Source of the DNA: Scyliorhinus canicula
Taxonomy: Eukaryota
Assembly: GCF_902713615.1 (NCBI RefSeq)
Contig: NC_052172.1
Location: 11,636,185-11,700,184, forward strand
Reading direction: 5' to 3'
DNA length: 64,000 bases
The notes beneath the pieces are model-generated. The model saw only the letters and a list, made by a program, of their open reading frames with translations. It was not told the DNA's origin and did not search any database. Position numbers and translations under genes: made by a program. This document shows, one piece after another, positions 1,946 to 63,979 of this stretch (within the stretch, counting starts at the first letter, position 1; each line of letters starts with the position of its first letter).

Positions 1946-2310
1946 GGGTAGTGGAGGCTAGCGGAGTTAACATGGGGATGAAGCAAAGCCATGGAGGGGT
2001 TTGAAAACAAGGATGTGAATTTTAAAACGGAACCATTGCTTAACTGGGAATCATCAGAGACCAGGGAGCACAAGGGTGATGGGGGAAAAGAGAGCTGGTG
2101 TGAATTCAGACATGAGCAGCAGGGTTTTGGATGACACCAGGTTTCCAGAGAGTAGGACCTGAGTGGCTGTCCAGGAGTGAGTTGGAATGGTGGCAACACA
2201 GGAATGGATGATGGTTTCGACTGTGAGTGAAGCTGAAATGGGGGTGAACATAGAACATACAGTGCAGAAGGAGGCCATTCGGCCCATCGAGTCTGCACCT
2301 CACTTCCACC

Positions 2311-3114
2311 TGTAGCGATCTCAGATGGCCACCTGCAAAGAACCATGGGAATTATGGCCAACCCACGACTCAGACAGAATCAGAGCCTGTGTGTGTATTT
2401 GCAACCCAGATAGCTAGACACGATCAAAACCCCCCGCTCGTTTTCATTCTAATGGCCCATTTCCCCAGAACAAAAGAACTACTCGGGTAACCAATACAGA
2501 TATAGACTAATCGGCGCCACTCCCTTTACTCAGCGAGCCCAAACAGCCACGGTCAATGACCGCTAAGGACACGCCCAGCCATCAAGGCACCCGCCCCTTT
2601 ATTGGCCAAAATCGAAGGCAATGATTGAAGCCTGTCGAATTATTGGGTCCAAGTTAAGGACCGCCCCAAAGAGCATGAAATCCCAGAGAGATAAGAAGAG
2701 ACAGCCATGTGCTCGGTCTCTCTTGGATCCGCCCTATGCCAACCCAAGTGCAGCACAACGACCAGACAGACAAGTTCAAGACCAACGATCACTACCAGAC
2801 AGATGAGCCCAGCAGAAACAGAGCCACCTCTTCCATCCAGCCATGCAAGACCCGGACAAAGGCCTCAGCCTTGTCCCATAGCATTGAGCTGATTGCCCCG
2901 AAGTTAAGTATATATTATTGTAGTTGTTAGGTGTAGTTTAACTTGTATTGTTTTGTGTTTCATGTCGAAGTAATCCTTGTGTGTAAAGAAACCACCTTTG
3001 AACTTGAACTGACTAATTGGTTGTGTGGTCCTTTGATCGATATCCGGTAAAGCCTTGTGGTGGTATCATTTGATACCTGGCGACTCTAAAGAGCATCGTT
3101 ATTAATTGGCAACA
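2311..3114 (+). mobile_element. 5' LTR of the ERV-like element
   Basis: Begins TGTAGC and ends GCAACA (imperfect terminal inverted repeat, TG...CA). It interrupts a SINE tail fragment (2247-2310) and is followed by a PBS. Confidence 0.75.
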
Positions 3115-3118
3115 TTAT

Positions 3119-3132
3119 TGGTGACTCTGGTG
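3119..3132 (+). promoter_or_regulatory. Primer-binding site complementary to tRNA-Arg(TCT) 3' end
   Basis: TGGTGACTCTGGTG, 4 nt after the LTR end. The recalled vertebrate tRNA-Arg(TCT) end ...CACCAGAGTCG-CCA gives TGGCGACTCTGGTG (one C>T difference). Confidence 0.7.
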
Positions 3133-3445
3133 CCGATTGAACTCCGAAAGAACCCACAAACTTTGAAATCCAATTGCGTGAAAGAGAAAGAACCACAAGT
3201 GCAAGCCCATATCGACCAAATCACCGAATTTCGGAAGTGTGCACTAACCTGCGTGCGTACTAACGGGGATATAAGGTAAACTCTTTCGATTGTGTCAAAA
3301 CTATCGAGGGAATTGTGAACCGGAAAATAGCTTCGGCCATACCCGCAGTTCAAATCTCCGCCTTATCCCCCTGTCCCAAAATAATGATAGGAAACAGAGA
3401 TTAACAGTAGGAAAAGAGATATTGGAAGGAATTGCCACAAAAGCG

Positions 3446-5120
3446 ATGGATCGGTTACTGAACCCACAGGAACCCGAGGTTGAAGCGACCAACAGAGCAG
3501 AGCAGTGCCCCATATTGGAAGAAGAGTTGAGGAATTATTTAAAGGGGAAAGGATGGCACCTTTGCTCCGATTTTTGTTCAAATGAAGAGTCAGGTTCAAG
3601 AAGCATAGGACAAAATTGGTAGGGCAACCTAACCGAGGTACGTAAGAAAAATGCAGCAAAAGTGCGAAAGCATTAGTGTCGTGTTGGGCACTGTTGCGAG
3701 GCACAGAGGAGGTCGTGAGGACGCTCCGCAGGCAGCTAGTTGAGAAAGAGGAGAAGAATGAGGGAAACAATAGTGAAAGTAAAAAGATTATTGAGCAACT
3801 CCGGGAACAGTTGGCAGCTAAAGATAAAGAGATGGCTGATGTCAAACGGGCACACCAATCTTGTTTAGTTCAACTTAGCAGCTTTCAGACCCAGTACGAT
3901 AAAGCCTACCATGCACAGCGTGCAGTCTTGGTACGAAAAGAGACAGAACAGCAGGTAGCACAGTTAACGAGTCAATGCGCAGATTTAAAGGCAGCTTTAC
4001 GAGCGCTCCATAGCTCCACTACAGAACAAAGACAGCACAGTAGACCACGCTAAATGTAGACAACAAATTGAGAAGTTGCAGCCACTGCTTTCAGTGCAAA
4101 ATGGATTTGGGTATACTTTCGGACAAAATTTAGATGAGGAAGGTGCCTCCAATTGGCAAGAACTAAATGAAACCGCCCAGAGAGAGATATGTGGAGGACA
4201 CAGAAAATCACAATAGAGCCCCCCCCCCCATGCCCAAAAAGGAAAGCACCCGCACCACCGACTGCACAGGCAGCACACACCCCCATGAATCCCGTCACCA
4301 CACAGCGCAAGCCATTGGATCGGGAAGAGCCAGATTGCATTTACACCACCCCATTATCCATCACCCATTTGAGATGCCTGTGGTGAAATTGGTCCATTCG
4401 GACCCACCGCAGACTCGCATAATTTCTTTGAGAGAGTATGCTAGCAAAAGGTTATGTACGGTCTAGACGAAAGGGAGGAAGTTAAAATGAGCTTTGACCA
4501 GTCCGTCAGCTCAGCTTTGCCAGAACCCCAGAATGTAGGAGGAGGAACCCGTACAGGAGATGAAAACGGCCATTTTAGACGCAATCGGGTACAACAAGGG
4601 AGACCTGTAGAAGGTTTAAACCGCTGTAGGCAAAAGAAGGGAGAGCATCCGACCCTATTTGCAGGTCGCCTTTGGATCCATTTTAAAGCAGTATTTGGGG
4701 ATTTGAACCGCGCACACTTAGATAACGACGACACAACTAAATGGTCCCGCACTTTAGTCTTGCAGGTCAAAAGGCTTACGACCCCGCAGACCACACACAC
4801 AATGAAGTGTGGGTGTTAAAGAGACTCTCCAGAGTTTGGGAACAATCCCTTCACAGGAAGGCAGATCAGGAGCAGGTCGAAGCAAATATGCACCCAGTTA
4901 GAACTAACCAGGACCCAGCATGGATAAATGAGGGGAGACATGATGGACAGCACCCCAGAGCACAGGCACCATGAGGCTGCTATAATTCTGGACACATGGG
5001 ACGTTACACACGCGAATGCCAACAAAAACCCCCCCGAACTAGCAACACCACCAACAACCTGGCCCCACACCTAGGAACAATGTTCAGCCCATACACAGTG
5101 TTAGCGCCCGTTCAGATTGA
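3446..5120 (+). pseudogene. Degenerate gag: N-terminal region, long coiled coil, capsid-like region, decayed CCHC zinc knuckle
   Basis: Fragmented ORFs 3290-3622, 3676-4053, 4189-4386, 4454-4819, 4741-4974. CRQKKGEHPTLFAGRL is MHR-like. CYNSGHMGRYTREC from 4978 is a decayed CX2CX4HX4C. Multiple stops and frameshifts. Confidence 0.7.
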
Positions 5121-8100
5121 CGATGTTCGGATTCCTCAACTTGAGTCTGGGACAAATCAGGCAGACCAGTAGTCACAGGTACAGTCCGGGGACATCCAGT
5201 AGAATTTCTTTGGGACACAGGAGGGTCCCACACCACTTTAAACTCCTCCACAATGTTCCAGCGTGACAAATGGCCCACCACAGACACCCTTATTGGATTT
5301 ACCAGACACGTACAGCAGGGATACATCACAGCCCCTGTAGATATTCAGATTGGAACCCCATAAACACCAGACACCCTGTTGTTTTAGTCGACTTGCCCCA
5401 AACAGCCGAACACATTCTAGGAATCGATTTTATGAGTTCCCACAACCTTTCCTTTGATCCCGTGAATAGATGTGTATGGAAAATGGCCAAAACAGTGAGA
5501 GCCCCCGCTACGCTTACAGGAGGAGACTATGAACATAGGATTTGCTCAGTAGGAGACTATTGGTTTGATCCGCTAACAATTAGTACAGACCAGACAATTG
5601 GAGAGGTCCTCAGAAAAATAAAGCTTTCTTCACCTGGAAGATCCCAGGAATGGGCTCAATTTCAAGTCCCAATCCTAAGCCACAGAAGCAATACGGTTTC
5701 CCACAACAAGCCGAGGGTGAGATTTCAAAAGTCATCAATAGTTTATTAGATCAAGGAGTAATTCGGCCGGTTGCCTCAACAAATAATGCCCCAATTTGGC
5801 CCGTGTAAAAACCCAATGGTTCTTGGCGACTGACAATCGACTACCGAGAACTTAACAAGGTCACCCCTTTTGCAACCCCACCATTGCCATGAGTCCTGAG
5901 ACCATGCTCAAGCAGGGAGTACAGGCAAAGCACTTCACAGTGCTGGACATCAGCAATGGCTTCTGGTCCATCCCGCTAGACAGGACCTGTCAGTATAAGT
6001 TCGCGTTCACATTTCAAGGGCAGCATTATACATGGACGTGCCTCCCGCAAGGAGGCACAACTCCCCCTCCATTTTCCACCGACAATTGGCCAACGGACTT
6101 TACAAATTCTCCCGAATGCCTTATACAGAATGTAGACAACTTACTCCGACAGACAGACACAAAGGAAGAGCATGTAAAGCTTCTTTCGGAATTACTAGGT
6201 CTTTTGCAATCCATTGTATGCAAGGTCAACCCAAAAAAGCCCAGATCTTAAAAGAAAAGGTCCTTTATTTCGGCACCATTATCACCCACGGGAAGAGAGA
6301 GATCGAACAGAAGTGAATTGTGTCAATAGTTAAATTGCCCCTGCCCCACAATATCAGTGTATTCCGGTCATTCTTACGATTTGTTAGATATTGTAGGAAC
6401 CATATAGATTGTTTTGCCACAAAAGCAGCCCCACTCTCGGAACTCCTTAAAAAGAACGCCCCATGGGAATGGCTTCCTCAGCACACAGACGCTATCAATG
6501 AATTAAAACACTCCCTAGGCACAGCCCCCGTTTTGCAAGTTCTAGACCCACACTCTCCCTCTGCCACAGAAGTAACAACCACCGACCGAACCCTATCAGC
6601 AGTACTCCTACAGGAAAGACATGACTGCTTGGGACCCGTAGCCTATGCCTCACAAATTTTGGATCCCGTAGAGCAAGGATTTACAGCCTGCGAACGGCAC
6701 TTACTAGCAGTCTTTTGGGCAGTGCAGTATTTTGCATACATCACAGGCCTTAACCCAGTAATGATTTTAACCGTGCACACCCCAACACAGCTATTGTTAG
6801 ATGGTAGGTTAAAGGACGGTTCAGTCAGCCAGATCAGAGCAGCTCGCTGGACACTGTTGTTACAAGGAAGGGACATTACAGTCAAACGTATAAAGACCCA
6901 CACATTTCGAGCAGGGACCCCACATGAGTGCCAGATCATAGCAGCCCAACACCACACAGGATCCTTTATTCCGAAGTCACTGCACACACGAGCAGGCAGT
7001 AAAACGCAGAATCCACACACCATAGACAACGCTTTAAAGATTTATGTAGACGGTTCCTCCACCATTGAAAATGGAAAGAGAATAACTGGTTGTGGAATTT
7101 ATGTAGAAGACGCACAGGGAGGCGCTTTGGAAGAAATATCTTTAAAATTACCTGGCTATCTAGGGTCACAAGCAACAGAACTAGCAGCCATAGCAAATGT
7201 AGTGCAGCACCCCAATTCCTTTCCAACCCCTGCAGACATATATTCGGACAGTTTATATGTGTGCAATAGCTTGACAGAATTCCTGCCCCTGTGGGAATCT
7301 CGAGGAAATGAAATGAAAATCGCTTATTGTCACAGGTAGGCTTCAAATGAAGTTACTGTGAAAAACCCCTAGTCGCCACATTCCAGCGCCTGTTCAGGGA
7401 GGCTGGTACGGGAATTGAACCGTGCTGCTGGCCTGCCTTGGTCTGCTTTCAAAACCAGCGATTTAGCCCATTCATATCCGCTGATGGTAAACCCCTACCC
7501 TCAGCCCCATTGTTGAAGCATATTCTTAGAACAGCAAAAGACCGCCTGTATGGTATAATCAAAGTGAGAAGCCATCATCGTTCCTCCCCACCCGGTAATG
7601 TAAAGGCAGACGCCTTAGCTAAGTCAGGATCACGCCACGGTCACTTTTGACAATCCCCCGAAAGTGAACCGATTCACGCAGTCCAGGTTTCTCAGACCAA
7701 TATCGAGGATCTATCCCAGGCCCAAAAGGCAGACGACACTCTCAAACAAGTTTTAGACGGTATCTTCCCAGCCCCCTACGACAAATGCAAGGACTCACTG
7801 ACGGTATAGTTTTTAAAAATTGAATTTGTGTGGTCCCCACCCAGGACAGAAACCAGAAAATTTACCAGTTTCACGACAGACACAGACATCAGGGGATAGA
7901 CAATACCATTGGCCATTTAAAACCTTTGTGTTGGTGGCCCGATTTAAAAGCAGATGTCACGCATTATGTTGAGAATTGTTTCATCTGTGCACAGAACAAT
8001 CCTGAAAGGTACTCCGAGAAGGGACAATTGACACACACCAGACCTGTTAATGGGCCTTGGACAAATTTGCAACTCGACTGCATTGGTCCCCTCCCACCTT

Positions 8101-8235
8101 GCAGAAATGGTTTCAAATACGTATTAGTGGTAATCGACACCTTTACAAAATGGGTAGAAGCATTTCCCTCACGGACAAACACTGCAAAGGCCACAGCTAA
8201 GATTTTGACCCAACAGATATTTACATGCTGGGGAC

Positions 8236-8269
<34 letters not shown>

Positions 8270-8640
8270 ACAGCATTGAGTCAGACCAAGGTTCCCATTT
8301 CACCGGCAGAGTCATGCCCTCACCCATGAAAAAGCGGTCCAACAAGTCACAGACAATATTAAAGCAGCACAGCTCGCTACAGCTGTCCGCACTTTAGGCA
8401 CTAGAAGGAAGCAGAGTAAGGCCTGCTTTGACAAAACCATCCACCCTCCAGAGTATACAGTCGGTCACCAAGTAATGGTTTCCCTTTACAATCCCAGTTC
8501 TTTCCTCTCCCCCAAATTTGCAGGACCCTACACCATTACAGACAAAGAAAGCCCCTCTGTGTACAGATAACGTACCCCAATGGTAAAACTGGTTGGTTCC
8601 ACATCAACCAGCTCAAAGTCTATGGAACCCAATGTAGCCA
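5121..8640 (+). pseudogene. Degenerate pol: protease, RT, tether (degenerate RNase H), RNase H, integrase
   Basis: PR FLWDTGG (D at 5214). RT WRLTIDYRELNK, LDISNGFW, LPQG, and NVDN at 6129-6140 (decayed YVDD). Tether PVAYAS..CERHLLAV. RNase H IYVDGS..ELAA..IYSDS..GNVKADALAK. IN with HHCC, PWTNLQLD.IGPLP, SDQGSHF and a GPY module. Confidence 0.92.
7307..7469 (-). mobile_element. tRNA-derived SINE inserted in the ERV RNase H domain
   Basis: Interrupts LWESRG|FISADGKP. Same family as 51834-52010 and 56659-56833. (CATTT)n tail. Confidence 0.85.
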
Positions 8641-9319
8641 CTCCCACCACATCTCCCTGGTAATAGCAGACGATTCCGTCCTGCCCATCGACAACCTAGT
8701 CCAACCCTCCCCCAGCCCTGACAGCACGTCCACGCCCACAGATGTGACCCCGCCTCTGCCCACAGATACGACCTTCCACCTTGAGCTTGACTCCAATGGC
8801 AGCGAACAGCCCGAATTGACCACGATCACTGACCACTGGTACAACCTCCCTGGCCCCAGTCACTCCCGCCCCCGGTGCCACGACCAAGACATGTTTGGCC
8901 CCCTATACCCCCTTCCACAACCACAGCCAGAGTCACCGCCCGACAACAGTAACTTGCCCTTCACTGCCACCGCCCCTACGCCTCATGATAAACAAACCAA
9001 TTTTTGGCACCGCGACAACTCTTGTAGACTGGCTAGACATGACGATTCGGATTCCACAACGGCCCACGCGGCCACAGCACAAAAATGGCAGACACGAATC
9101 TGGCAACCGACACATGGTGATGATTAGATTCTGACTCTGGTTATGGTAATCCTTTTACAACGCTTTTTGATACAGAACCCTGAGGTGTCCAGATGATGAG
9201 AAAAAGACGCTGCATGAGAATTACCATGCTGCGTTGGATCGTTCGTTACAAAGATAGAATTAGATAGTGTTGATGATGTTGCAGACGCAAACTCAGCGTC
9301 ATCTGATTTACTCTATTAA

Positions 9320-10884: not shown

Positions 10885-12740
10885 GATGCACACTCTACCT
10901 CCCATGTGAATTCATCTCTGTATCATCACAGCAGTCAACATCCCACCCCAGGCGGAAGTGAAGAAAGCACTTGACAAACTCCACTCCACCATTAACAACC
11001 AAGAAACAAATCACCCAAGAGCCCTGACAGTCGTGGCTGGAGATTTCAACCAGGTCAACCTCAGGAAGGTTCTACCCAAACTCCATCAACATATCTCCTA
11101 CTCCACTAGAGGTGCAAACACCCTGGGCCACTGCTACACGAGCATCAAAGGTGCCTTCCGCATCATTCCCCGACCTCACTTTGGCAAATCCAATGTACCA
11201 AAGAAGACAATATGGGTGTTCCCCAATCGGACAACCTGGCTCGACCAAAGGGTTCACTCCCTGCTAAAGTCCCGGGTGGAGGCGTTCAAGTCTGGCGATC
11301 CTGACCTATATAAGAAATCCAGGAAGGACGTACGGAATCCATCAGGAATGCCAAAACACAATACCGGATCAAACTGGAGTTCCAGGCCAACGACACAAAC
11401 CCACGACGTCTATGGTAGGGCTTACACGAGATCACAGGCTACAAAGCAAGGCCAGGCGAAATCTCTGGGGCTGGAGCATCTCTCCCCGATGAACTGAACA
11501 AGTTCTATGCCCGCTTTGAACAGTCAGCCAATACAAGAGCCCTGGACACACCCATACCCACTATTACAGAAAGTAAACCCATGGAAAACGACGGGCCCTG
11601 TTGGAGTCCCTGGGCGAGCACTCCGAGCCTGTGTTGACCAGCTGGTGAGTGTATTCGCAGATATCTTCAATACCTCACTTCTCCACTCCGAGGTCCCCAC
11701 CTGCTTCAAGAAGACCACCATAATACCAGTACCAAAGAAGAACAAGATAGCCTGCCTCAACGACTACCGACCGGTGGCCCTGACGTCTGTTATTATGAAA
11801 TGCTTTGAACGGCTAGTCATGAGATAGATCAACGCCAACCTCCCAGACGGTCTTGATCCGTTGCAGTTCGCCTACCGTGGCAACCGATCCACACCAAATG
11901 CTATCTCTCTGGCCCTACAATCAACACTCAAACATCTCGAAAACAAGGACACCTCCGTCAAACTGGTGTTCACAGACAACAGCTCCGCCTTCAACACCAT
12001 TATCCCGACAGGACTAATAATCAAACTCTACAATCTTGGACTTAACCCCTCCCTGTGCAGCTGGATCCTTGCCTTCCTCACCAACAGACCGCAATCTGTC
12101 AGGATCGGCAACAGCACCTCCTCCACAATAGTCCTCAACACCAGGGCCCCGCAAGAATGTGTGCTCAGTTCTCTATTGTACTCCCTATACACACACGACT
12201 ATCTGGCAAGATTTAATTCAATCCAGAAGTTTGCAGATGATATGACTGTGGTGAGCCGTATCTCAAACAACGACGAATCAGACTACAGAAGGGGGATAGA
12301 CCACTTGGTTGTATGGTGTACCGAAAACAACCTCTCTCTAAACGTTGGAAAGACCAAGGAACCGATCATCGACTTCAGGAAGCGTAGCACGACACATCCC
12401 CCCCTCTCCCCCCGTCTCATCAATATTTCCGAAGTGGAGATGGTCAATAGCTTTCAGTTCCTGGGGGTCACCATCACCAACAGTCTGTCCTGGTCCACTC
12501 ACGTTGACACAACAGTCAAAAAAGCCCAACAACGTCTCTACTTCCTACAGAAGCTAAAGAAATTTGGCATGTCTGCATCGACTCTCACAAACTTCTACGG
12601 ATGTGCAATAGAGAGCATCCTATCCGGCTGCATCACAGCCTTGTATAGCAACTGCTCGGTCCAAGATCGCAAGCAACTGCAGAGTGTGGTGAACTCAGCC
12701 CAACGCATCACACAAGCTTGCCACCCTCACATTGATTCAG
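10885..12740 (+). mobile_element. Rex1/Babar-clade LINE, degenerate EN-RT ORF
   Basis: VAGDFNQ (EN), [67 protein letters not shown]. Confidence 0.85.
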
Positions 12741-13609
12741 TCTGTCTATCAATCAATCAATCAAAAAATAGGGAGCAGGAATAAACGGGTATTTCTGGGT
12801 TAGCATGTTCACTAGCAGCATGATCAGTATTTGGGCCTCAGCTATTCACAGTGACTTAGATGAAGGGACCAAGTGTAACGTAATGAAGTTTGCTTGATGA
12901 TAGATTGGAAACTAAATGATGAAACTAACTACCAAGCGGAAGTAGACAGATTGGGTGAGTAGGAAAGAACAAGCTGATTGCGGTAAATTGAGAGAACAAT
13001 GGCATAAACCTACTGAGTAAAAACTGTCATGATAATTTTAGCTGTTTTGTGTTATGCTTATTTAATAAAATATTTTTCTCAGTTCGTGGAAAATGCTGAG
13101 GTCAACTAACTTGTAAAAAAAAAGTGAAAACCCATATTTCCATTTTGGACGCAAAATTTTGTTTTTTGCAAAGTCAATCCCTACTTCTTGACATGTGTCC
13201 CTCACGGATGAAAGTGAGTATTTCTCCTCTTCTAAAAGGTTTTCTCATTTGAAACGTAAATTCTCTCATCTCCATTCAACCATCTGGAGACACGTTGCAG
13301 TTAGCTGGTGCAAATTAACCCTGGGAGCAGTTCCAGAGATGTTTAAGGACCCTCCGGTACATCGTGCAATGTGTGAGCTCGCACACCAAGAGTTGGCAGG
13401 CTGTTCAGCTATATCACCGCCAAGTTCCTTGGTGGATGTGTGGAAGTGTCCAGATGCTGTGACTGGCTTTTGATCAATTCTAACAACCCTCACCCCCCAC
13501 TGGAAATATAACAAGCAGTACAACCATTCAGCTCGAAAGGTCAAAGGCATTGTTTATACTCCACCCACACACACACACACACATACTCCTCTCTTCCTGG
13601 GATGTGAGC

Positions 13610-61897: not shown

Positions 61898-62312
61898 CGT
61901 TTTCCCGTGGGGGGAGGCTCACGTGAGGCGGGGCGGGGCTCTTTGTCCCGCTTCGCCGAGTGGCAGGTGACGGGGGCCAATCGGAGAGCAGCCGGCGGGC
62001 GGAGCTGACCAATCAGGGTGAGGAGGGAAGGCGGGATTTCCGGTCAGGCTCGGGGCCAGCGGCGCTGTCCGGCGGTTGGAATCCGGGACAATCCGCCTCC
62101 ATCGGTAATTTCCCGGCGCCATCGGCGGTCCCGAGCCCGCTGGGCGGCCTCCAAACTGCGCACACCGTGGGTGCCGGAATATATCGCGGCCCAAACCCTT
62201 GGCCCGCGGCCTTACCCGGAGAGCAGCGCTCTTACCGTCTAGCCGGAGCGGCCACTGGGGGCGGAGGACGGAGAAGGTTCCGCCGCCGGCTGCCAACTTC
62301 CGGTTGGTGCAG
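61898..62312. promoter_or_regulatory. CpG-island, probably bidirectional promoter (ACTMAP plus a divergent gene)
   Basis: CpG-rich; TCACGTGA (61919-61926), GC box, CCAAT at 61977 and 62009, several CCGGAA/TTCCGG ETS cores. Confidence 0.7.
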
Positions 62313-62317
62313 GGAAT

Positions 62318-63325
62318 GGGGTTAGGGGGGCCTGCCCTGTGTCTGGGGTTAGGGGGGCCTGCCCTGTGTCTGGGGTTAGGGGGGCCTGCCCTGTGTCTGG
62401 GGTTAGGGGGGCCTGCCCTGTGTCTGGGGTTAGGGGGGCCTGCCCTGTGTCTGGGGTTAGGGGGGCCTGCCCTGTGTCTGGGGTTAGGGGGGCCTGCCCT
62501 GTGTCTGGGGTTAGGGGGGCCTGCCCTGTGTCTGGGGTTAGGGGGGCCTGCCCTGTGTCTGGGGTTAGGGGGGCCTGCCCTGTGTCTGGGGTTAGGGGGG
62601 CCTGCCCTGTGTCTGGGGTTAGGGGGGCCTGCCCTGTGTCTGGGGTTAGGGGGGCCTGTCCTGTGTCTGGGGGGAATGGGGTTAGAGGCAATGCCCTGTG
62701 TCTGGGGGGAATGGGGTTAGGGGGGCCTGCCCTGTGTCTGGGGGGAATGGGGTTAGGGGGGCCTGCCCTGTGTCTGGGGGGAATGGGGTTAGGGGGGCCT
62801 GTGTCTGGGGGGAATGGGGTTAGGGGGGCCTGCCCTGTGTCTGGGGGGAATGGGGTTAGGGGGGCCTGCCCTGTGTCTGGGGGGAATGGGGTTAGGGGGG
62901 CCTGTGTCTGGGGGGAATGGGGTTAGGGGGGCCTGCCCTGTGTCTGGGGGGAATGGGGTTAGGGGGTCTGCCCTGTGTCTGGGGGGGAATGGGGTTAGAG
63001 GGAATGCCCTGTGTCTGGGGGGAATGGGGTTAGGAGGCCTTGCCCTGTGTCTGGGGGGAGGGGAATGGGTTTAGGAGGCCTTGCCCTGTGTCTGGAGGAG
63101 GGGTAGGGGACCTGCCCTGTGTCCGGGGGGGGGGGGGGGGGGGGGAATGGGGTTAGATGGCCTTGCCCTGTGTCTGGGGTTAGGAGACCTGCCCTGTGTC
63201 TGGGGTTAGGAGACCTGCCCTGTGTCTGGGGTTAGGAGACCTGCCCTGTGTCTGGGGTTAGGAGACCTGCCCTGTGTCTGGGGAGGGGAATGAGGTTAGG
63301 GGGTCTTGCCCTGTGTCTGGGGGGG
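62318..63325. repeat. 27-bp minisatellite GGGGTTAGGGGGGCCTGCCCTGTGTCT and derivatives
   Basis: About 12 near-perfect copies, then diverged units. Confidence 0.95.
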
Positions 63326-63979
63326 GGGGGAATCCTGCCTTGTCTCCATGGGTCATATCCGCCCTGGCTCCCATCTTTCCCCTATCCCTGAATCGACCCT
63401 ATGCTGTAACCCGTTGCAGCCTGCAAGCGGTATTAGTTGGCTGGGTTTGGTAGTGGCAGGCAGCCTGGCTCTCTTTGAAAGCAAATTATTGCGGATGCTG
63501 GAAAATCCCTGCAGTCTGGCAGCATCTGCAAGGAGAAGAAAAAGCTAAACCAAGGGTCATCTGGACTTGAAACGTTAGCTCTTTTTTCTCTCTACAGATG
63601 CTGCCAGACCTGCTGAGATTTTCCAGCATTTTCCCTTTTGGAGCCTGGCTCTCTGTTGTCTTTTTACAGTGCAGAAAGAGGCCAGGGTGGGCTTGCTTCA
63701 GTCTGCTTGTACAGAATTTACAGTGCAGAAAGAGGCCAGGGCTTGCTTCAATGTTCTGGTTGTGTTTTGCTGATTAACTTTAGGCCTCCTGTTTCTTGGT
63801 CTGGGCCAAAAACGATTTCAGATTTATCGAATTTCATGATTTACCACAGTTGGATTTGATTTCATGACTTTTAAGTAGCGTTTAAAACCGTGAGGTTTAC
63901 CTACTGCAGTTGAAGAGCTTATTTTGCAGAGTGACTGCTGAGACTTGCTTTGATTTCTACTTTTTTCTCTTATTTTCAG

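Follow-up and report, generated by a model that had tools for sequence, protein, structure and literature searches.

A decayed retroviral element in the catshark Scyliorhinus canicula probably belongs to an envelope-less, SnRV-related family that encodes a small predicted membrane protein

The retroviral element at 2311..9225 of a 64,000-nucleotide stretch of the Scyliorhinus canicula genome (contig NC_052172.1, positions 11,636,185 to 11,700,184; the window) raises the question of which retroviral lineage it represents and how that lineage spreads. A sequence-only reading had described an LTR-PBS-gag-pol layout in which no env or 3' LTR is visible, and had proposed a deep-branching, lokiretrovirus-like lineage that would extend the host range of that group to cartilaginous fish. 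The account that we regard as probable is a different one: the element is a decayed copy, cut short at its 3' end, from a large catshark family of endogenous retroviruses that lacks an envelope gene and belongs to the SnRV-related clade Huo. This family probably multiplies by germ-line copying, and a small predicted membrane protein likely helps it to do so. The features of the window copy are as follows.

2307..2310, + strand: likely left 4-bp target-site duplication (TSD), its right copy gone with the 3' end
2311..3139, + strand: 5' LTR, beginning TGTAG, with its final bases and the true primer-binding site (PBS) deleted near 3140
3119..3136, + strand: PBS-like stretch, by alignment a duplicate within the LTR end of the subfamily, present in both LTRs of copies L039 and L041
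3431..5117, + strand: gag, disrupted by stops and frameshifts, with a coiled coil at about 3700-4130, a capsid-like helical region and a decayed CCHC knuckle at 4978-5019
5118..5123, + strand: gag stop (TGA, next codon CGA), in the same frame as pol, a putative readthrough site
5121..5450, + strand: protease, WDTG at 5211, Pfam protease match at 5145-5360
5715..6460, + strand: reverse transcriptase (RT), frameshifted, core NVDN at 6129, LPQG at 6042, RVT_1 match at 5856-6248
6464..6880, + strand: tether, a Ty3/gypsy-type RNase H fold (PF17919/PF17917) with its catalytic acidic residues replaced, according to site counts across copies
7034..7630, + strand: second RNase H (PF00075) with four acidic motifs (YVDGS 7043, ELAA 7178, YSDS 7241, GNVKAD 7594), split by an insertion
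7306..7470, + strand: 165-bp dispersed repeat, a later insertion in the RNase H, absent from sister copies
7824..8625, + strand: integrase (Pfam and motifs), with HHCC finger, first part of the core, a poly-C run at 8237-8269 and a GPY module at 8523
8626..9183, + strand: C-terminal tail of pol, rich in Pro, Ser and Thr, up to the TGA at 9181-9183
9184..9225, + strand: truncated end, lacking the small membrane ORF, polypurine tract and 3' LTR that sister copies carry

Pfam searches of the unaltered open reading frame pieces of the window found RT_RNaseH_2/RT_RNaseH followed by RNase_H within a single open frame (6317-7336), bearing out the earlier description of a dead Ty3/gypsy-type tether ahead of a second, cellular-type RNase H. 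The integrase zinc finger and core were matched at 7824-8276, and the GPY module that had also been recognized falls in a weak SH3/GPY match at 8280-8567, below the Pfam cut-off; about 96 codons of the core are gone at 8316/8317 through an internal deletion. The RT core had rightly been derived from YVDD, the commonest form among family copies (38 matches). The coiled coil read ahead of the capsid region is supported by heptad scoring, and Gag 119-237 is predicted to form long helices, the only part of an AlphaFold model built from five sequences to reach a pLDDT of 60-74 (with a mean pLDDT of 39, the model is too poor to be searched for similar folds). The knuckle, correctly read as decayed here, is intact as zf-CCHC in an unbroken natural copy of the family, and the gag stop reads TGA-CGG in 35 of the 40 copies in which this site was called. 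Of the proposed layout the LTR, gag and pol stand, but the PBS does not, as the stretch read as such lies within the LTR end; env and 3' LTR are indeed absent from the window, but the cause is truncation at about 9225.

The window copy is one of many. Its LTR matches other places at 89-93% identity, itself excluded, in the 40 that were scored out of 4760 candidates, and the 165-bp repeat at 96-98%, again excluding itself, in the 40 that were scored out of 1640 candidates. Four-bp TSDs were found in 18 of 24 family copies with both ends scored, and the family is both large and young: the two LTRs differ by 1.3% or less in 26 of 31 pairs. No env is present in any of the 34 copies in which the pol end and 3' LTR could both be mapped; no env-size frame, and so no fusion-type Env, was found there, the gap from pol to 3' LTR measuring 1.4-2.0 kb with no frame above 160 aa in 33 of the 34 and the remaining copy carrying an unrelated insertion. 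The set of 50 copies consists of the top search matches, partly picked for long open frames, and a rare env-bearing relative could have escaped it. Two long frames considered as env were rejected: the endonuclease and RT motifs of the 650-aa post-pol frame in L130 mark it as a CR1-like LINE, whilst the frame in L125 runs into an unrelated repeat. Twelve late reference ORFs, Env proteins among them, gave no match to the 3' regions of the family copies; a search of genome G000 with SnRV Env also gave no match, under a stricter first pass that makes it uninformative, and one with Fusion_gly (PF00523) was blank, but its controls were also silent. Family RNA spans all 30 bins in four of four raw-read runs. 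RNA depth rises at 7500-8100 of copy L051, with loose read ends near 7424, a pattern that may reflect 3' bias, subfamily indels or subgenomic RNA.

By RT, the family lies inside the canonical Retroviridae and not among the lokiretroviruses. In an RT tree of 59 rows, the canonical retroviruses including the family form a clade supported at 100/98, with the lokiretroviruses (100/100) outside it, and the family is sister to row P0006 (98/92) within a 13-row clade that includes frog and coelacanth endogenous retroviruses (93/96). A quick mixture-model tree of RT and tether that uses the window's own open frame agrees (canonical placement, 98). These trees hold no class II, named ERV-L or Odin rows, their fish foamy-like rows are not identified, and their lokiretrovirus anchors (P0028-P0047) were recognized by a peptide common to the Loki rows of a published supplement; the base of the canonical retroviruses is weakly ordered in them. 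Approximately unbiased (AU) tests reject joining the family or its wider clade to the lokiretroviruses, to gypsy, to foamy viruses or to the Ovex1 clade. Union with SnRV is not rejected (p=0.34), though SnRV is not the sister in the best trees. RT identity to the family is 49% for SnRV, 42-46% for Ovex1, SpeV and CrocERV37-39, and 38-39% for lokiretroviruses.

The proposal that the element is a lokiretrovirus or an Odin-like retrotransposon, and thus carries that group into cartilaginous fish, draws on real likenesses. Loki and Odin elements, which group together at 100% (PMC9040795), also combine a tether with an acquired RNase H and have a similar integrase, and Odin elements have an env-less gag-pol layout like that of the family (PMC7947760, PMC9040795); the integrase shares 44-47% identity with those of loki elements, and the capsid features score nearest to the Retrotrans_gag/Ty3 clusters (0.94, a lead only). 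The paired RNase H domains, however, are common to all retroviruses and not diagnostic. The RT and integrase phylogenies called for by the sequence-only reading answer unequally: RT rejects the union of loki with the family (p=0.003) and with its wider clade (p=0.013), and two RT-based trees, which lack an Odin row, stand against it, whereas the best integrase tree does not join the two but leaves the join unrejected (p=0.12). Lokiretroviruses further differ in an RT outside the canonical retroviruses, an Env resembling that of paramyxoviruses and, in some cases, an smc-like ORF (PMC7947760, PMC9040795). Searching G000 with loki Pol returned only RT-RNase H matches of 35-36%, with the frame lengths of the catshark family. 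Wang and Han report no lokiretrovirus in three chondrichthyan genomes, their genome table including S. torazame, and the family's Gag occurs in S. torazame. Lokiretroviral affinity is thus scarcely credible, and the host-range extension falls with it. Very improbable, too, is membership of the shark foamy-like elements (CmiFLERV, ERV-Spuma.0-Sca), although the top PDB sequence matches are foamy Pol and integrase, and the published shark elements group with a Xenopus element much as the family groups with frog endogenous retroviruses. MLV and Ty3 score almost equally in the PDB comparison, joining the wider clade to foamy viruses is rejected (p=0.030), the RT of the family lies outside the foamy clade, and the family keeps an in-frame gag-pol and an intact CCHC knuckle, which foamy viruses lack. 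ERV-Spuma.0-Sca itself (Jing, 2023) is another family, with a different LTR start and different ORF sizes.

The earlier view that the element fits neither Gypsy nor the gamma- and epsilonretroviruses holds: Ty3/Gypsy elements (Metaviridae) have a single active RNase H, against tether plus RNase H here, and their union with the family is rejected (p=0.010). ERV4 was likewise set aside, having a 5-bp TSD, no zinc finger and no GPF/Y (Chong et al., 2014) against the family's 4-bp TSD, knuckle and GPY. Ovex1, SpeV and CrocERV37-39 resemble the family in their coiled-coil Gag, in-frame gag-pol and tether plus RNase H. Ovex1, though, has no knuckle (PMC2717909), its RT is dead and its ORF3 resembles env, and joining it to the clade of the family is rejected (p=0.001). 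SnRV has an unmyristylated coiled-coil Gag, one zinc finger and gag-pol in a single frame across a stop (PMC2717909), and the family, in a comparison that included copy L057, likewise has an unmyristylated coiled-coil Gag, one CCHC knuckle and gag-pol in frame across the stop. Its Gag is barely alignable with that of SnRV except at the knuckle, and SnRV is further distinguished by a 1134-aa env frame, accessory ORFs and a TAG stop, in contrast to the TGA-CGG, missing env and small membrane ORF of the family. SnRV uses tRNA-Arg as primer, and the predicted primer of the family is tRNA-Arg(TCT).

The lineage is likely already catalogued. The S2 Fig of Xu et al. (2018; PMC6001957), in its PDF text, lists the whale-shark element Rh_ty_ERV2 beside SnRV in clade Huo, and by eye this element has motifs of the Gag capsid, knuckle and protease in the same order as the family; the RT of the little-skate element le_er_ERV4 is a close match to row P0006, sister to the family. 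The clade Huo assignment follows from the order of labels in that figure and from comparing, by eye, an excerpt of 400 characters. Nesting within a lineage already known from sharks, which the sequence-only reading had named as what would refute it, is thus largely what was found. In the parts of that paper drawn on here, both elements appear as data-set entries, and neither the loss of env nor the number of copies, recent activity or a small ORF at the 3' end is mentioned.

That ORF, of about 115 aa, is present whole or as a remnant in 47 of 50 family copies, at the place of env and downstream of a conserved splice-acceptor-like site. It is 85-119 aa long and combines an N-terminal hydrophobic stretch resembling a cleaved signal peptide, a Thr/Pro-rich stalk of about 30-46 aa with a predicted, invariant N-glycan site, one strong membrane helix by hydropathy and a basic tail with 5-8 K/R within 15 residues past the helix in the eight unbroken frames among 11 scored. 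Homologues were found only in catsharks and none outside Scyliorhinus, and its profile has no similarity to the SnRV Env tail or the 12 late reference ORFs; an origin from env is unproven. Atlas and Pfam searches returned weak look-alikes only (TMIE, Flu M2 and TMEM156 below cut-off), all atlas scores being below 0.9 and the matches unrelated. The family's splice acceptor is also present in annotated host-ERV chimeric gene models, through which the family may shape host transcripts.

Gag, pol and the small ORF are all under purifying selection. For the small ORF, dN/dS is 0.19 (0.08-0.38) and 0.08 (0.01-0.17) between young subfamilies and 0.19-0.31 across deep ones, where dS is near saturation; gag and pol stand at 0.09-0.10 by comparison. 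Values of 0.44 and 0.54 for the small ORF come from two pairs in which both old copies belong to the same subfamily. It is quite improbable that the ORF is a passenger, kept for an RNA signal or by shared recent ancestry and serving no function as a protein, as might be supposed from its restriction to Scyliorhinus and from four RNA runs that list no splice joint between leader and acceptor: bootstrap dN/dS intervals stay under 1 for all 12 pairs, and subfamilies whose small proteins are only 38-49% identical retain the start codon, both hydrophobic segments, the glycan site and, despite length changes, the frame. A bolder proposal leaves the identity of the family as it is and makes the small protein an envelope-independent cell-cell fusogen, by analogy with sORF2 of Drosophila MDG1 and the reovirus FAST proteins. 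Such proteins are defined by a length of 60-210 aa, one membrane helix and at least 3 K/R within 15 residues after it, all of which the small protein shows, and commonly, not universally, carry an N-terminal myristoylation motif, according to the portion of the preprint consulted (bioRxiv 10.1101/2025.03.14.642691). The sORF2 host, moreover, is an env-less LTR element, the ORF occupies the place of env and is conserved across subfamilies, and it is hard to see what use a surface protein would have if the cycle were wholly intracellular. Against this, an MGxxxS/T motif is absent from all 11 small ORFs, no sequence similarity to sORF2 or FAST proteins is shown, and the atlas matches are unrelated. 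FAST proteins are not known to have a cleaved signal peptide or an N-glycan site, such as the signal-like N-terminus and glycosylated stalk suggest here. The host is also a retrovirus, a group absent from the sORF2 hosts in the same portion of that preprint. It is therefore doubtful that the small protein is a fusogen serving passage from soma to germ line, and equally doubtful that env was replaced by a single-pass protein, expressed from the old env splice site, that would move capsids from cell to cell, soma to oocyte, with no envelope fusogen. An accessory surface glycoprotein, encoded by either a reduced env or an independent accessory gene, that would act on host membranes or defence and not as a full entry protein has about an even chance.

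In the account that we favour, of an SnRV-related family copying itself within the germ line, reverse transcription would be primed by tRNA-Arg(TCT), Pol would be produced by readthrough of the UGA-CGG gag stop, and the small membrane protein, probably translated from an env-type spliced RNA, would aid the spread. Loss of env is usually taken as a plain switch to intracellular copying. Here, a large, young and transcribed shark family has lost env, yet a small membrane gene under selection has persisted in it across deep splits between subfamilies, and a conserved surface protein is at odds with that simple picture. Should the fusogen proposal be true, it would be the first sORF2/FAST-like strategy inside the Retroviridae, used by a catshark family whose expansion continues; the family offers, in any case, one small gene in which envelope-independent spread or defence antagonism may be probed in a vertebrate.

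Within the window, the following features were recognised:
303-692: open frame of 129 aa that strongly matches Gemin7 (PF11095, E 1e-32), likely the coding exon of host GEMIN7; this candidate exon shares the strand of the LTR and precedes it by 1.6 kb
2311 to about 9225, plus strand: retroviral layout
3119-3136: PBS-like stretch
10910-12784: decayed LINE-type endonuclease/RT frames, recognised by motifs, amid many SINE-like repeat copies
35.7-39.2 kb and 59.6-61.9 kb: extended tracts of low complexity, G-rich and C-rich, beside the minisatellites listed next
62236-63330: 26-36-bp minisatellites containing the telomere-like word GGGTTAGGG

The retroviral anatomy proposed by the sequence-only reading holds, as Pfam searches of the unaltered window ORF pieces matched a protease, RT, the integrase zinc finger and core, and, in a single open frame, a Ty3/gypsy-type RNase H-like domain (tether) followed by a cellular-type RNase H, with a weak match to the SH3/GPY module. 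The LTR-PBS-gag-pol order claimed there stands as a layout but not in its PBS: the stretch at 3119-3136 is a duplicate, found within both LTRs in sister copies, and the window copy has lost its true LTR end and PBS. In an older subfamily (L039, L041 and window 3119-3136), the end of the LTR contains a PBS-like copy, as though its boundary had shifted past an old PBS. Comparison with an unbroken natural sister copy, against which the window motifs were placed, revealed many stops and frameshifts; the RT core reads NVDN, a 165-bp foreign repeat interrupts the RNase H, about 96 codons of the integrase core are deleted, and the element ends about 40 bases past pol. The window copy itself is dead.

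Across the S. canicula genome, a search with the tether-RNase H frame scored 119 matches among 41,918 candidates, many in open frames of 1408-1411 aa. Fifty copies from this list were examined; their selection favoured long frames and similarity to the window, so the sample is non-random. Full copies span 9.2-9.9 kb: between two LTRs lie gag (about 600 aa), a single stop, an in-frame pol and a 3' region. LTR pairs diverge by 0-1.3% in 26 of 31 copies (three without any substitution) and by 2.8-7.2% in five, and both pairs nearest the window belong to the older, more divergent group. Target-site duplications of 4 bp were present in 18 of the 24 copies scored at both ends. The PBS, called in 33/50 copies, matches the 3' end of host tRNA-Arg(TCT) at 18/18 bases in five, ARAGORN having called that tRNA at one of six loci. 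Young copies (L103-L132) show many PBS variants in which one or two bases are inserted beside the exact tRNA-Arg match, a hint of slippage or of additional primer tRNAs. The TGA-CGG context is a basis for inferring stop readthrough, and its presence at 35 of 40 called gag stops suggests readthrough here. Tether motif matches hold Val (48/48), His (43/43) and Glu (43/45) at the positions taken to correspond to the Asp, Glu and Asp of Gypsy RNase H. Searches for Gag homologues returned proteins from Scyliorhinus torazame only (four, at 71-79%). In one old copy, the RT is interrupted by a 1211-aa open frame that belongs to a different element (L049:3322-6954).

Downstream of pol, whose end was located in 47/50 copies and the 3' LTR start too in 34, the gap to the LTR measures 1.4-2.0 kb and holds no frame longer than 160 aa in 33 of 34 copies, the remaining one having an insertion there; searches using 12 late reference ORFs found no env similarity. 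In 47/50 copies this region contains a small ORF (about 113-119 aa), whole or as a remnant. The encoded protein has a signal-peptide-like hydrophobic N-terminus; a stalk rich in Ser/Thr/Pro, which bears an invariant N-glycan site; Trp-Cys and Trp-Tyr-Ser motifs; and one predicted membrane helix followed by a basic patch and a short tail. Among the copies nearest the window, the ORF is whole in L135 and L137 and broken in L039, L041 and L043. Two stretches (C12:78943460-78961738 and C12:82920897-82939175) each hold three small-ORF matches at intervals of about 8.97 kb, either LTR-sharing tandem arrays or assembly duplication.

The young form of this ORF is stop-free in all of the best 150 of 6445 genomic candidates. 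Between young subfamilies, pairwise dN/dS values of 0.19 and 0.08 were obtained; comparisons of deep subfamilies, one pair of which was saturated, gave 0.19-0.31. Intervals lie below 1 in 12/12 pairs, and the values for pol and gag are 0.09 and 0.10. That the ORF has no protein function is accordingly very improbable. Apart from one repeat artefact, HMM searches recovered the ORF solely from gene models of S. canicula and S. torazame. In four of six gene models (P0126, P0127, P0128, P0131) similarity starts at or adjoining the same AG, P0125 fits this site by eye, and P0129 enters mid-ORF; in 10/10 copies shown, this AG follows a conserved tract about 25-80 bases 5' of the ATG. This arrangement points to a putative working splice acceptor in the position of env. 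Two S. torazame models, P0129 and P0131, are HEPACAM2-like and UGT8-like isoforms ending in the small ORF, which in P0129 gives an Ig-domain protein its membrane anchor; these chimeras are possible exonizations or annotation artefacts. In all four poly(A) RNA runs (two studies), every one of a young copy's 30 bins is covered by reads, and in the three single-end runs family reads lie nearly all on one strand, which means sense RNA if the libraries were stranded as usual; no leader-to-acceptor splice joint was listed among the reads of the four runs.

For phylogenetic placement, SnRV (snakehead retrovirus; L057/P0027) and lokiretroviruses (P0028-P0047) were identified via peptides common to named rows in the supplement of PMC7947760, and Ovex1 (P0013/20/22) via motifs quoted in PMC2717909. 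L097 was recognised as a foamy virus through a PDB match. Other reference rows are presumed, from genome length and tree position, to be gamma, WDSV, SSSV and further foamy viruses. Of 79 candidate rows, 59 entered the RT tree once near-duplicates, short pieces and two deltaretrovirus-like rows had been removed. In it, canonical retroviruses group together as a clade (100/98) with lokiretroviruses outside it (100/100); the family groups with protein row P0006 (98/92) in a 13-row clade with frog and coelacanth ERVs (93/96). AU tests on RT, with this wider clade defined post hoc from the tree, reject joining the family to lokiretroviruses (p=0.003) or gypsy (p=0.010), and the wider clade to lokiretroviruses (p=0.013), foamy viruses (p=0.030) or the Ovex1 group (p=0.001); a join of the wider clade with SnRV is not rejected (p=0.34). 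A 35-row RT+tether tree (mixture model, quick search) that includes the window's own frame agrees. The lokiretrovirus-like affinity first proposed is thus refuted by RT, whereas the 53-row integrase tree, without resolution at its base, does not reject it (p=0.12). In that tree, lokiretroviral integrases fall among those typical of clade Huo, the SnRV-related ERV group of Xu et al. (2018), weakly beside ERVs of frog and coelacanth (89/63), and NYNRIN-like annotations prevail among relatives; lokiretroviruses, CGIN1/NYNRIN and the clade-Huo-type group may share one integrase lineage. A lokiretroviral Pol query against the genome, in a stricter first-pass search, returned only 35-36% RT-RH matches, in frames of the family's length.

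The Ovex1 paper describes for SnRV an unmyristylated coiled-coil Gag, one zinc finger and an in-frame gag-pol (PMC2717909), so the traits behind the lokiretrovirus reading are those of the SnRV group. In a 400-character excerpt of the S1 data of PMC6001957, whale shark Rh_ty_ERV2 shares by eye with the family the ordered Gag motifs DITYTTP, GGGTL, NRGDPVE, EHPTAFA and NEGK, the knuckle, and the protease motif LWDTGGS. Rh_ty_ERV2 is listed beside SnRV in clade Huo (S2 Fig; Xu et al., 2018). The lineage is thus on record from sharks already, which removes the suggested extension of host range. Skate le_er_ERV4, from the same study (PMC6001957), matches P0006 and is absent from S2 Fig. Wang and Han (PMC7947760) report no lokiretroviruses in three chondrichthyan genomes, their genome table including S. 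torazame, and clade III ERVs are reported as most shark ERV RT hits.

For the small protein, an accessory or env-remnant role has roughly an even chance. A fusogen like sORF2 of Drosophila MDG1 elements or the FAST proteins of reoviruses is unlikely: the protein agrees with the size, single helix and polybasic patch described in the sORF2 preprint (bioRxiv 10.1101/2025.03.14.642691), but it has no myristoylation motif and appears to carry a signal peptide. A search of the open literature found no account of an env-less family of catsharks that carries such an ORF; the literature covered included PMC7947760, PMC9040795, PMC6001957, PMC10699275, PMC4422223, PMC2717909, PMC4299795, PMC5512871, PMC11089739, PMC10435555, PMC12440569 and the sORF2 preprint. 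Within the open literature searched, the combination of an absent env with a small membrane gene under selection is new. The family most likely copies itself within germ-line cells, where tRNA-Arg would prime RT, Pol would be made by stop readthrough, integration would leave 4-bp duplications, and the small protein would be retained as helpful to the element.
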